Positions 1,850-4,649 of a stretch of 35,993 bases of DNA are shown in pieces. The notes under the pieces were generated by a model. It saw nothing but the letters and a program-made list of their open reading frames with translations. It ran no database searches and was not told the DNA's origin. Within the stretch, counting starts at the first letter, position 1. Each line of letters begins with the position of its first letter. This DNA comes from a virus (taxonomy: Duplodnaviria > Heunggongvirae > Uroviricota > Caudoviricetes): positions 1-35,993 of IMG/VR virus record IMGVR_UViG_2585427748_000014; one strand, written 5' to 3'. A program made the translations under genes and the position numbers.

Positions 1850-2476
1850 TTAGAGTTCGTATTGAACTCCTTTGACTACACCAATGATAAGGCAATTACC
1901 ATTGATAGGGATGTTGGGATACCGAGGATTTAATGGCACTAAAAACTTTTGAGGGCCATCGATGACTAATTTTTTTACTGTAGCTTCGTTTGTTCCATCA
2001 AGTCGAGCGATGACTATTTTTCCATGACGAGGTTCTGCATCTGGATCTACAATCACTGTTGCGCCTTCTGGTATTGTTGGGAGGCCATTAGGGTTAGTCA
2101 TGGAGTCACCTTTAACCTCTAATGCAAATGAGTTATCACCAATCTTTAATGATGTATCTACCCACTTGTCCACTTCACTAAACACTTCTGCTGCCCTGCA
2201 CTCAGTAAACTGCCCAGCCTGAACCCACGATATTACAGGAACTCTGCGCATGTTTGTGACGAGTTTGCCTTCAAACTCAGCACCATAAAGAATGTAATCT
2301 ATTGACGTATTGAAGAACTTCGCTAATTTCGAAAGTGCCTCCCCACCAGGGGTATTGATGTCTTTCTCCCAGTACCCCACAGCAACGTCGCTTACTCCAC
2401 AAAATTTACCCAATTCTTTCTGGGACGTTCCGGTAACTCTTCTCAGAGCTTTTATACGCTGACCAACCGTTTCCAT
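1850..2476 (-). CDS. cI: Prophage repressor, cI/LexA-like (N-terminal XRE-type HTH plus C-terminal S24 peptidase domain)
   Basis: 208-aa ORF; HTH segment QKELGKFCGVSDVAVGYWEK; C-terminal GDSM...KKLV consistent with a Ser-Lys autocleavage dyad; divergent from the Cro-like gene; no Shine-Dalgarno, consistent with a leaderless message. Confidence 0.9.
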   Translation of the reverse strand: METVGQRIKALRRVTGTSQKELGKFCGVSDVAVGYWEKDINTPGGEALSKLAKFFNTSIDYILYGAEFEGKLVTNMRRVPVISWVQAGQFTECRAAEVFSEVDKWVDTSLKIGDNSFALEVKGDSMTNPNGLPTIPEGATVIVDPDAEPRHGKIVIARLDGTNEATVKKLVIDGPQKFLVPLNPRYPNIPINGNCLIIGVVKGVQYEL

Positions 2477-2573: not shown

Positions 2574-2774
2574 ATGACAACTGACGATATCGAAAGCTAC
2601 TTCGGCAGTATTGAGAAAGTTGCTGCTTTTTTCGGCATAACAACTGAAGCCGTTTATCAGTGGCGAAACCGTCCGGGCCAGTTAATTCCAAAAGGACGTG
2701 CAGCAGAAGCTGCATATAGAACTTGCGGACGGTTGCCATTTAAACCTGAGCTTTATGAAAAATCTAATGGATAA
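2574..2774 (+). CDS. cro: Cro-like DNA-binding regulator (Cro/YdaS-type HTH)
   Basis: 66-aa ORF divergent from cI; GGAGG 4 nt upstream; HTH-like segment VAAFFGITTEAVYQWRNR. Confidence 0.75.
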   Translation: MTTDDIESYFGSIEKVAAFFGITTEAVYQWRNRPGQLIPKGRAAEAAYRTCGRLPFKPELYEKSNG

Positions 2775-3363
2775 ATCGATTAACAGAAACCACAGAACGA
2801 TGAGGCTAACCGTGGGTAAGCATCACTGGAAAGTAGAAAAACAGCCTGAGTGGTACGTGAAAGCTGTCAGAAAAACTATCGCAGCGTTGCCGGGTGGTTA
2901 CGCTGAAGCAGCTGACTGGCTGGATGTAACAGAAAACGCATTATTTAACCGTCTTCGTGCCGATGGCGATCAGATTTTCCCGCTGGGATGGGCAATGATT
3001 TTGCAACGTGCTGGTGGAACTCACTTCATTGCTGACGCTGTGGCGCAGTCTGCAAATGGCGTCTTTGTGTCTCTTCCTGACGTCGAGGATGTGGACAACG
3101 CCGATATTAACCAGCGCCTGCTGGAAGTCATTGAACAGATTGGCAGTTATTCCAGACAGATTCGTTCGGCAATCGAAGACGGTGTGGTGGAACCGCATGA
3201 GAAGACAGCAATTAACGACGAGCTGTATCTCTCAATTTCGAAGCTGCAGGAGCATGCAGCACTGGTCTACAAAATCTTTTGCATTTCAGAAAGTAATGAC
3301 GCCCGCGAGTGTGCAGCTCCGGGCGCCGTGGCGTGTCGTGACTGTGGAGAAACTAACGCATGA
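2755..3363 (+). CDS. Hypothetical early regulatory protein (possibly YdaT/CII-like); start uncertain (2755, 2767 or 2800)
   Basis: Long ORF immediately after cro; no strong Shine-Dalgarno, so translational coupling is possible. Confidence 0.45.
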
Positions 3364-3698
3364 ACAGTTTAACAACACACTACCGTCGCTCGCAACTGAT
3401 TGCGCTTCCTGTACCGGGTGGAAAAGCGAAGGTGGAGTATTGCTATGCAGTTAATGTACCAGGTGACAGGGAAATTGTAACCCACAGCTTTGCTGAGTGG
3501 GCTGTGGGTGATTTCAACCGGCAGAAGGAGACAGTCCTTTGCGACAAGTTAACCGCTGGTTCAAAGATCACTACGGAGTGCCCGTCAGAGTCATTCGTTG
3601 GGAGCCGGAAACACAACGAGTTATCTACCTCCGCGAAGGCTATGAGCATGAGTGCTTCAGCCCGCTCGAACAGTTTCGTCGTAAATTCAGGGAAATAG
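3360..3698 (+). CDS. Hypothetical protein; its 3' half may be mis-framed (see finding on the alternative frame 3539..3718)
   Basis: ATG overlaps the upstream stop (ATGA); the C-terminal half is Ser-rich and low-complexity, while an overlapping frame encodes a more protein-like sequence. Confidence 0.35.
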
Positions 3699-3707
3699 AG
3701 GTCGGTC

Positions 3708-4649
3708 ATGAGCACTAAATTAACCGGCTATGTATGGGATGGTTGCGCTGCATCAGGCATGAAATTATCCAGCGTGGCAATTATGGCCCGCCTGGCTGAT
3801 TTCAGTAATGACGAAGGTGTGTGCTGGCCATCAATTGAAACTATTGCCCGTCAGATTGGCGCGGGGATGAGTACCGTCAGGACGGCTATCGCACGGCTGG
3901 AAGCAGAAGGCTGGTTAACACGTAAGGCGCGTCGCCAGGGTAACCGCAATGCGTCGAATGTTTATCAGCTTAACGTTGCGAAGCTTCAGGCAGCGGCATT
4001 TTCTCAACTGTCAGATTCTGACCCGTCAAAATCTGACGCATCAAAATCTGACCCGTCAAAATTTGATGCGTCGAAATCTGGCAAAAAAGCGGGTTTTCAC
4101 CCGTCAGAATCTGGCGGGGATCCGTCAGTAAAATCAAAACATGATCCGTCAGATAAAAAACCTTCTCGTCCGGACGCTTCGCAACCGGACACGCAGACGG
4201 ATGAACAGGATTTTTTAACTCGCCATCCTGATGCGGTTGTATTCAGCCCTAAAAAGCGCCAGTGGGGAACGCAGGATGATTTGACCTGCGCACAGTGGCT
4301 CTGGAAAAAAATCATCGCCCTGTACGAGCAAGCCGCCGAATGTGACGGCGAGGTGGTTCGTCCCAAAGAACCGAACTGGACAGCCTGGGCAAACGAAATT
4401 CGCCTGATGTGTGTGCAGGATGGTCGTACTCACAAACAAATCTGCGAGATGTACAGCCGCGTCAGCCGCGATCCGTTCTGGTGCCGTAACGTGCTCAGCC
4501 CGTCGAAGTTGCGGGAAAAATGGGATGAGCTTTCCCTGCGCTTATCACCGTCCGTCAGCACGTACACCGAAAAACGCGAAGACCCGTACTTCAAAGCCAG
4601 TTACGACAACGTGGACTACAGCCAGATCCCGGCAGGATTCAGGGGGTGA
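3708..4649 (+). CDS. Replication initiation protein, O-like (N-terminal wHTH; internal linker encoded by iterons)
   Basis: AGAGG 6 nt upstream of ATG; N-terminal HTH segment; tandem 15-bp repeats inside the gene, as for lambda O/ori. Confidence 0.7.
   Translation: MSTKLTGYVWDGCAASGMKLSSVAIMARLADFSNDEGVCWPSIETIARQIGAGMSTVRTAIARLEAEGWLTRKARRQGNRNASNVYQLNVAKLQAAAFSQLSDSDPSKSDASKSDPSKFDASKSGKKAGFHPSESGGDPSVKSKHDPSDKKPSRPDASQPDTQTDEQDFLTRHPDAVVFSPKKRQWGTQDDLTCAQWLWKKIIALYEQAAECDGEVVRPKEPNWTAWANEIRLMCVQDGRTHKQICEMYSRVSRDPFWCRNVLSPSKLREKWDELSLRLSPSVSTYTEKREDPYFKASYDNVDYSQIPAGFRG
4009..4160. repeat. Iteron array (candidate ori): five tandem 15-bp repeats (consensus about CCGTCAAAATCTGAC, 4009-4082) plus three degenerate copies (4101-4115, 4122-4136, 4146-4160), ending in an A-rich tract
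   Basis: Direct tandem repeats read from the sequence; they lie inside the O-like gene. Confidence 0.75.

Follow-up and report, generated by a model that had tools for sequence, protein, structure and literature searches.

How many genes lie between ymfL and the O-like replication gene of an e14-like lambdoid prophage? The question is raised by a 35,993-nucleotide stretch of viral DNA (Caudoviricetes; IMG/VR record IMGVR_UViG_2585427748_000014, positions 1 to 35,993), which we call the window. In a mechanically produced list of its open reading frames (ORFs), two ORFs on the plus strand overlap at this location: one of 112 amino acids that starts with ATG (3360..3698) and one of 59 amino acids that starts with TTG (3539..3718). 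An earlier note on this DNA, made from its letters alone, described both ORFs as we find them. It remarked that the second half of the long ORF becomes serine-rich and of low complexity, as is indeed the case (12 of the 52 residues at positions 61-112 are serine vs. 3 of the 59 at positions 1-59), and that the short ORF seems more protein-like. It offered two explanations: a real small gene missed by ATG-only calling, or an indel that fused two frames.

We identify the long ORF as ymfM and the short ORF as a gene of the DUF4222 family. This identity of the long ORF, and the selection that seems to keep its second half open, were not foreseen in the earlier note. The two genes appear to form a same-strand overlapping pair, in which each frame has its own evidence of selection. 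The explanation that we favor, and that we consider probable, is dual coding: YmfM would comprise an N-terminal domain (N-domain) and a tail overprinted on the DUF4222 gene, and the tail would serve mainly to deliver ribosomes to the O-like gene. The argument draws on ORFs, homologies, patterns of selection and the geometry of stop and start codons, all of which were observed directly.

Identity of the two reading frames

The long ORF is the ortholog of ymfM (b1148) of Escherichia coli K-12: 109 of 112 residues are identical, the DNA is nearly identical and synteny is preserved, as ymfL and the O-like gene flank it in both. In the K-12 RefSeq annotation, its name is "cell division inhibitor YmfM". 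The literature reads the K-12 gene as a simple ORF of 112 amino acids; here, however, the same sequence is read as two overlapping genes. The short ORF matches the Pfam domain DUF4222 (PF13973) at positions 3-52 of the 53-position profile (E=8.6e-19; 67.3 bits, compared with a gathering cutoff of 27), which bears out the impression that its frame is the more protein-like. Alignments to homologs thus support both frames, rather than only the long one.

The arrangement is widespread. The locus is present in 2,629 of 5,426 complete E. coli genomes, 2,004 of which match over at least 80% of the query. Two frames are likewise found in Klebsiella phages, Raoultella, Citrobacter, Pantoea/Mixta and further E. 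coli phages, where DNA identity can be as low as ~75% or less.

Annotations of this DNA disagree with each other. In other complete E. coli genomes with 100%-identical DNA, the Prokaryotic Genome Annotation Pipeline (PGAP) annotates the DUF4222 protein (WP_001250269.1) and not ymfM, while K-12 and several phage records annotate ymfM and not DUF4222. The unannotated DUF4222 ORF of K-12 is at NC_000913.3 1204001..1204180. In the record of Klebsiella phage ST101-KPC2phi6.3, the annotated coding sequence at this location is an ORF antisense to both. PHROGs has three families for the same DNA (phrog_1170, phrog_1343 and phrog_13771), and NCBIfam has no model for YmfM or for the DUF4222 protein. The proposal of a real small gene therefore stands, given the domain homology, purifying selection and conserved start and Shine-Dalgarno (SD) sequence described below. 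That the gene was missed is true of K-12 and several phage annotations, but not of PGAP.

The start of the DUF4222 gene is well defined. Because a TGA at 3509-3511 closes its frame upstream, the TTG at 3539 is the sole usable start. A single-nucleotide polymorphism (SNP) that is silent in ymfM (T3509G/A/C, in codon Gly50) removes this TGA in 21 of 85 related loci, and explains the longer DUF4222 proteins called in databases (69-86 amino acids, e.g., P0093-P0095). The SD sequence AAGGAG that was reported upstream of the TTG is present at 3525-3530, with a spacing of 8 nucleotides. We curated 20 loci in which no stop ends the N-domain frame at the start of DUF4222 ("junction-open" loci). In every junction-open homolog the DUF4222 gene starts with ATG, GTG or TTG at the same aligned codon, and in about 19 of 20 a G-rich, SD-like motif is located 6-12 nucleotides upstream.

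DUF4222 is also found in many other contexts. The domain occurs in 111 phage records, many of which lack a ymfM homolog. The fold predicted by AlphaFold2 (AF2) is a five-strand beta-barrel with a helix (predicted local distance difference test, pLDDT, 83.5). A Foldseek search with this structure retrieved only generic small beta-barrels (SH3/KOW/Tudor/KorB-C; best E=0.065) and gave no functional lead. Like other proteins in the Pfam family, that of the window has the full-length domain and the typical position just upstream of a lambdoid replication gene. However, in other prophages the gene is free-standing and coupled by ATGA, whereas here and in a defined set of lineages the upstream frame overprints it, and the DUF4222 stop is displaced by 11-80 nucleotides into the O-like gene.

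Amino acid constraint in each frame

We analyzed polymorphism in 85 closely related loci (52 haplotypes), which are near-identical viral contigs from the E. coli population that were retrieved with the window's DUF4222. None of the 52 haplotypes varies in length over positions 3360-3718, and the overlap acquires no stops. Variants in the N-terminal 59 codons of ymfM are 18 synonymous to 7 nonsynonymous, and this synonymous excess indicates that the N-terminal part is genuinely coding in the ymfM frame. Of the 15 SNPs in the overlap, 14 leave the DUF4222 protein unchanged and alter that of ymfM, so the amino acid constraint there rests on the DUF4222 frame. Between E. coli and a Klebsiella phage, whose DNA is ~75% identical, amino acid identity is 88% for DUF4222, 61% for the N-domain and 50% for the ymfM tail. 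By these sequence-based measures, DUF4222 is a bona fide gene under purifying selection at the amino acid level.

Absence of stop codons in the overprinted tail

The tail of YmfM is read in the +1 frame of the DUF4222 gene. In all 20 junction-open loci this frame runs free of stops to DUF4222 codon 53 or further. Stops in the +2 frame were counted in ten of these loci, and each has several. Codon choice shows an avoidance that depends on context. In junction-open loci, valine and leucine codons that precede a codon starting with A or G are always GTT/GTC or CTT/CTC, and GTG, GTA and CTG, which can create stops, occur only where the next codon starts with C.

An open +1 frame in a single genome is unremarkable: 11.6% of 52-codon windows in the window's own genes have one. 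The signal that matters is the comparison across lineages. When codons in junction-open loci were resampled synonymously, 1.5-2.4 stops were expected and the probability of an open frame was 0.03-0.15 per sequence. As a control, DUF4222 genes of the unfused type (class B) were found to have 2-5 stops, where 1.8-5 were expected, and the window's own genes have 455 stops where 485 were expected. The lineages are near synonymous saturation (pairwise codon identity 0.24-0.7). We also conducted a tree-aware neutral simulation that starts from an open ancestor. Five of the 20 tips had been ascertained through the long ORF, and thus the run with 15 tips is the unbiased one. All 15 tips remained open in 0 of 3000 simulations with either the estimated or halved branch lengths, and in 1.4% with quarter branch lengths. 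With 20 tips, at most 1 in 3000 simulations left all tips open, even with quarter branch lengths.

An independent sample was obtained from four scans of IMG/VR that used the DUF4222 protein frame only, and that yielded 168 unique cores. In 105 of these (26 clusters at 95% identity) the N-domain is contiguous and the junction is open; none has a +1 stop before DUF4222 codon 53, and the first stop is at codons 53-56 in all. In the 18 cores with an upstream N-domain and a stop at the junction, there are invariably 2-5 further internal +1 stops. The remaining 45 lack a contiguous upstream N-domain, and have 2-3 +1 stops in 35 cases and none in 10. Together, these results point to a tail whose amino acid sequence is unconstrained and whose frame is held free of stops by selection.

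We considered the composition of the tail as evidence of function, and rejected it, since +1 frames in class B are similar. The richness in serine, threonine and alanine is largely a by-product of the DUF4222 coding sequence, so composition is uninformative as to function.

Separability of the N-domain and DUF4222

The N-domain is defined by the alignment motif ..QL..LPVxGG..Y.V.VPG...H.F.EWAVGDF. AF2 models residues 10-66 of YmfM with pLDDT 70-83, and residues 68-112 with pLDDT below 50 and no predicted secondary structure. A structure search with the N-domain found no match. The family is tiny, with 56 representatives at E<1e-3 among 1.84 billion proteins. Called N-domain proteins fall into two length classes (59-77 and 111-123 amino acids), and the few of intermediate length are frameshift chimeras or truncated variants, not nonsense truncations.

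The N-domain is a stand-alone gene of 59-71 amino acids in phiNP-like, Hafnia, Providencia/Morganella, Xenorhabdus and Yersinia prophages, where DUF4222 is absent, located 700-1000 nucleotides downstream or directly coupled by ATGA. The unfused prophages of Morganella, Providencia, Yersinia (YeP2) and the phiNP-like group have the same two modules in the same cI-cro-cII-...-O operon. However, their N-domain gene has a stop, which overlaps the adjacent start of DUF4222 (or O) as ATGA, the +1 frame of their DUF4222 holds the expected 2-5 stops, and DUF4222 overlaps the O start by 4 nucleotides.

Four rare database proteins (P0030, P0052, P0059 and P0065) have the N-domain fused in frame to DUF4222, at four different junctions. 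We suspect that these fusions, and variants of 63 amino acids, are indel mutants or assembly errors from a cryptic prophage that is decaying. We had considered phrog_20047 (63 amino acids) as an E. coli family consisting of the N-domain only, but its members are frameshift variants, and the true stand-alone genes are found in other genera. In Entomohabitans teleogrylli (L120, 1501..1737), an N-domain gene retains the beginning of the tail (..ALCSQLT..) but not DUF4222, and its end is 11 nucleotides inside O; it seems to derive from the overlapping type by deletion.

Junctions and stop/start geometry

The two types of junction differ by one base. At the junction-stop type, the DUF4222 start lies within ATGA, which gives TGA in the N-domain frame. 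At the junction-open type, the start codon is followed by C (G in one locus), which gives TGC or TGG.

The other end of the tail is positioned with respect to the O-like gene. In 15 of the 20 junction-open loci, the ymfM-frame stop lies 9 (in most loci), 3 or 0 nucleotides before the O ATG; in two it lies 11 nucleotides past this ATG, and the three ST64B-like loci run on into Ash/Rha. The stop is in or adjoins the SD sequence of O, which in the window reads TAGAGGTCGGTCATG. In 18 of the 20, ymfM and the gene that follows share a frame. By contrast, the DUF4222 stop wanders 11-80 nucleotides into O in most junction-open loci, compared with an overlap of exactly 4 nucleotides in the five loci of unfused types whose start was read correctly. 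In the window, the DUF4222 stop (TAA, 3716-3718) is 11 nucleotides into the O-like gene, whose ATG is at 3708, and 20 nucleotides beyond the ymfM stop; the overlap with the O-like start is therefore as the earlier note had it. Successive stop and start codons overlap or nearly adjoin, as ATGA between ymfL and ymfM and with 9 nucleotides between the ymfM TAG and the O ATG, which is the geometry of a coupled operon.

Two side observations concern this frame. At positions 3696-3710 of the window, ymfM and O are in the same frame and are parted by the TAG and three codons (AGG TCG GTC); read-through of the TAG, if real, would give a YmfM-O fusion. In four phages, the +1 frame of DUF4222 continues in frame to a Phage_ASH domain (PF10554), with or without Phage_pRha. 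The long ORFs are L112 1058..2215 (ST64B sb41), L111 1052..1888 (2H10), L113 1184..2017 (an Stx2 phage) and L089 2996..3679 (Hafnia yong2). As the frame runs on into Ash, a single long "antirepressor/Ash" ORF is annotated, which swallows DUF4222.

Proposed mechanism

We propose that one mRNA of the early-right operon is read in two frames over 3539-3698. Ribosomes that finish ymfL would restart at the ATGA and synthesize YmfM, i.e., a folded N-domain of ~57 residues followed by ~52 residues in the +1 frame of DUF4222. Other ribosomes would bind the AAGGAG at 3525-3530, start at the TTG at 3539 and produce the 59-amino-acid beta-barrel. DUF4222 would be the older gene, with its own independent distribution, and the tail would have arisen by overprinting when the stop of the N-domain was lost. 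Since then, the sequence of the tail would have varied freely, while selection purged stop codons. The main role of the tail would be to let ribosomes from upstream traverse the embedded DUF4222 gene and reach the start of the replication gene (translational coupling), and the disordered C-terminus of YmfM would be a by-product that was possibly exapted. Any use of the ymfM start entails translation of the tail. A sequence that is free to vary, a length and end point that are fixed relative to the next start and the run-on into Ash/Rha in ST64B-like phages favor the ribosome-delivery role.

It is important to consider several points that weigh against this proposal. We infer from the sequence, rather than from detected products, both that YmfM and DUF4222 are made and that coupling is the function under selection. 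The case for coupling is one of geometry only, and the O-like gene has a good SD sequence of its own. The position of the ymfM stop could simply mark the place where DUF4222 constraint ends and the purine-rich SD sequence begins. Stop-free +1 frames among DUF4222 genes without an upstream N-domain (10 of 45), some of which are fused into Ash/Rha ORFs, mean that openness is not exclusive to the ymfM context, and class B +1 frames have a similar richness in serine and threonine. Finally, the neutral simulation used a simplified codon-replacement model, on a tree inferred from 52 codons.

A useful comparison is the Rz/Rz1 pair of phage lambda, in which one gene is embedded in another on the same strand in a different frame, and both products are constrained and act together. 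The likeness is that of a lambdoid same-strand pair in which both frames are maintained. However, DUF4222 alone is constrained at the amino acid level in the overlap described here, and the only constraint on the other frame is to remain open. Nor is DUF4222 embedded completely, as it extends 20 nucleotides past the ymfM stop.

Alternative explanations

The alternative that survives best is that the tail contributes to the function of YmfM as a division inhibitor, for example as a disordered region for interaction or degradation, and is kept open for that reason. This idea is compatible with dual coding, and departs from our proposal solely in the target of selection; we regard it as possible, but unlikely. 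It would explain why the frame stays open over a conserved ~52-57 residues in different lineages, it agrees with the filamentation seen upon over-expression of the full ORF (bioRxiv 10.1101/2020.11.19.390815), and disorder of the kind that AF2 predicts tolerates sequence change. However, 14 of the 15 polymorphisms in the overlap alter the tail, its identity is 50% where that of DUF4222 is 88%, and tail-less stand-alone N-domain genes are common. Moreover, a functional tail leaves the tight placement of the stop beside the O start unexplained, and ST64B-like phages run the same frame into an Ash/Rha ORF.

It is also conceivable, though improbable, that the tail is neutral read-through, such that openness reflects chance and shared ancestry, and the 112-amino-acid YmfM is an accident of where the next stop lies. 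In any one genome a 52-codon +1 frame has a ~4-15% chance of being open, and the tail does have an unconstrained sequence and a by-product composition. However, the frame is open in every junction-open lineage despite near-saturated synonymous divergence, and none of the 3000 neutral simulations with 15 tips and estimated or halved branch lengths reproduced this. In the independent sample, 105 of 105 junction-open cores are stop-free, compared with 0 of 18 junction-stop cores, and safe codons are chosen according to their context.

We think it very unlikely that a programmed -1 frameshift joins the N-domain to DUF4222 as one fusion protein. The DUF4222 frame is indeed -1 relative to ymfM, and rare in-frame fusion variants exist. 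However, the TGA at 3509-3511 leaves only 3512-3538 for such an event, and there is no X XXY YYZ heptamer there, nor a significant RNA structure (z=-0.10). DUF4222 also has a conserved SD sequence and start, and many prophages encode it and the N-domain as separate genes.

The antisense ORF, as the real gene or as an additional one, is an equally weak candidate. In its favor, it is annotated in Klebsiella phage ST101-KPC2phi6.3, matches phrog_13771 and phrog_14536, and is open in 20 of 20 junction-open loci and 7 of 10 others. However, it is codon-aligned to DUF4222, so that stops could arise only opposite the rare codons TTA, CTA and TCA. Given an open +1 frame, its probability of being open is 0.5-1.0 per sequence, and its openness exceeds only weakly what +1 stop avoidance leads one to expect. 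It has neither a Pfam match nor a promoter-like site, and SNPs that are silent in DUF4222 hit its first codon positions. Most likely, it is a by-product.

The remaining two ideas are scarcely tenable. A sequencing error or recent indel, the second explanation in the earlier note, would account for the change of character half-way along the ORF and for the database proteins that switch frame at varied points (P0030, P0052, P0059 and P0065), but the 52 haplotypes have no indel, many finished genomes contain 100%-identical DNA, K-12 and other genera have the same arrangement, and the frame-switching variants have differing junctions and are mostly single contigs. That only ymfM is real and the DUF4222 frame spurious, as the annotations of K-12 and several phages would have it, is contradicted by the Pfam match, the 111 phage records with many contexts that lack ymfM, the 14:1 SNP pattern and the confident fold prediction.

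Genomic context

The locus lies in the immunity/early-right region of the e14-like prophage, as judged from the ORF list, PGAP annotation of identical DNA and Pfam. The gene order is cI-like, cro-like, ymfL, ymfM/DUF4222 and the O-like gene with its iterons, followed by PerC/yfdN-like and Dam methylase genes (Table 1).

Table 1. Coordinates, within the window, of the ymfM/DUF4222 locus and its neighbors
Feature	Position	Strand	Evidence or remark
cI-like repressor	1850..2476	-	ORF list, annotation
cro-like	2574..2774	+	ORF list, annotation
ymfL (CII-like, Phage_CP76)	2812..3363	+	PGAP on identical DNA; Pfam PF06892, E=8.4e-14
ymfL stop (TGA, 3361-3363) and ymfM start (ATG, 3360-3362)	3360-3363	+	overlap as ATGA; sequence
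ymfM ORF, ATG start, 112 amino acids	3360..3698	+	109/112 residues identical to K-12 b1148; phrog_1170, E=3.8e-70
YmfM N-domain, ~57 amino acids	3360..3530	+	alignment, stand-alone forms, polymorphism, AF2
Antisense ORF, 90 amino acids	3443..3715	-	codon-aligned antisense to DUF4222
TGA closing the DUF4222 frame upstream	3509..3511	+	sequence
DUF4222 SD sequence, AAGGAG	3525..3530	+	within ymfM codons 56-57
DUF4222 gene, TTG start, 59 amino acids	3539..3718	+	Pfam PF13973; PGAP coding sequence WP_001250269.1
YmfM tail, ~52 amino acids, Ser/Thr/Ala/Gly-rich, predicted disordered	3540..3695	+	+1 frame of the DUF4222 gene
ymfM stop (TAG, 3696-3698) inside the O-gene SD sequence TAGAGG	3696..3701	+	9 nucleotides before the O ATG, same frame as O
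O-like replication initiator (HTH_36)	3708..4649	+	downstream partner in the proposed translational chain

We found no internal promoter-like site upstream of the ymfM ORF or the DUF4222 ORF, and no Rfam family in the ymfM/DUF4222 region. The predicted folding of the RNA at 3500-3730 is not significantly structured (z=-0.10 vs. shuffled sequences). In its minimum free energy structure, the SD sequence AAGGAG of DUF4222 pairs with CCUUU, a segment that extends over the first bases of the TTG, to form a 6-base-pair hairpin (3524-3541). As the region is no more structured than shuffled sequence, this hairpin may be meaningless.

Within the O-like gene, there are five or six direct repeats with a 15-nucleotide period (TCAAAATCTGACCCG-like) at 4011-4085, and also at 4089-4157. 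Such repeats are what would be expected of origin iterons. To the left of the immunity region, positions 930-1152 on the minus strand match the small RNA STnc100 (Rfam RF02076), with a score of 48.5 bits, where the gathering cutoff is 47.

Implications for SfiC and for prophage annotation

The overlap bears on a function that has been assigned to ymfM. YmfM (b1148) of the cryptic prophage e14 in K-12 has been reported to be SfiC, an SOS-associated inhibitor of cell division (Ansari et al., bioRxiv 10.1101/2020.11.19.390815). According to the same work, expression of the ymfM ORF from pBAD24 led to loss of FtsZ (Z) rings and to filamentation, and deletion of ymfM together with sulA lowered recA441-induced filamentation. 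A library clone from 2013 consisted of ymfL(142-185)+ymfM+ymfN(1-92), and so took in the whole DUF4222 gene; later work on ymfM used deletions of the whole ORF. Assuming that the 3' end of the pBAD insert is the end of the ORF, the ymfM clone still holds the SD sequence, TTG and first 52 full codons of DUF4222. Indeed, all published gain- and loss-of-function constructs of ymfM include the DUF4222 SD sequence, its start and at least 52 full codons, which span the Pfam-matched domain. Because these constructs carry both frames, the published experiments cannot say which product blocks division.

We tentatively raise the possibility that SfiC is the embedded 59-amino-acid DUF4222 protein, or needs it, rather than the 112-amino-acid YmfM to which it is currently assigned, although we consider this less likely than not.

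The preprint of Ansari et al. mentions neither an overlapping frame nor DUF4222, nor a tagged or detected protein. The searchable literature that names DUF4222 does not concern ymfM, and the supplement of the small-ORF paper does not mention ymfM. The gene ymfM in K-12 is already known, as is DUF4222 in Pfam and in PGAP. In the searchable literature, however, the overlap of ymfM and DUF4222, the omission of the better-conserved gene from the K-12 annotation, the overprinted tail that is selected to be open and the resulting ambiguity as to SfiC all appear to be unreported.

The inconsistent annotation of the locus, as ymfM, DUF4222 or the antisense ORF, with three PHROGs for one 180-nucleotide stretch, will lead comparisons of pangenomes and prophages to mis-cluster it, and about 40% of complete E. 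coli genomes have this locus. Nature also provides here a clean case of overprinting, where selection would act on the new frame only for its continuity. The locus could thus be used to try out methods for the detection of overlapping genes, and to examine whether an ORF may be selected for continuity because this lets ribosomes move past an embedded gene. In E. coli K-12, the named gene ymfM has been assigned the function of SfiC, a 35-year-old puzzle, and a second, better-conserved protein of the locus has been omitted from the annotation. If SfiC does prove to be the DUF4222 protein, this would be the first function for a widespread family of prophage proteins, and the gene assignment in K-12 would be corrected.

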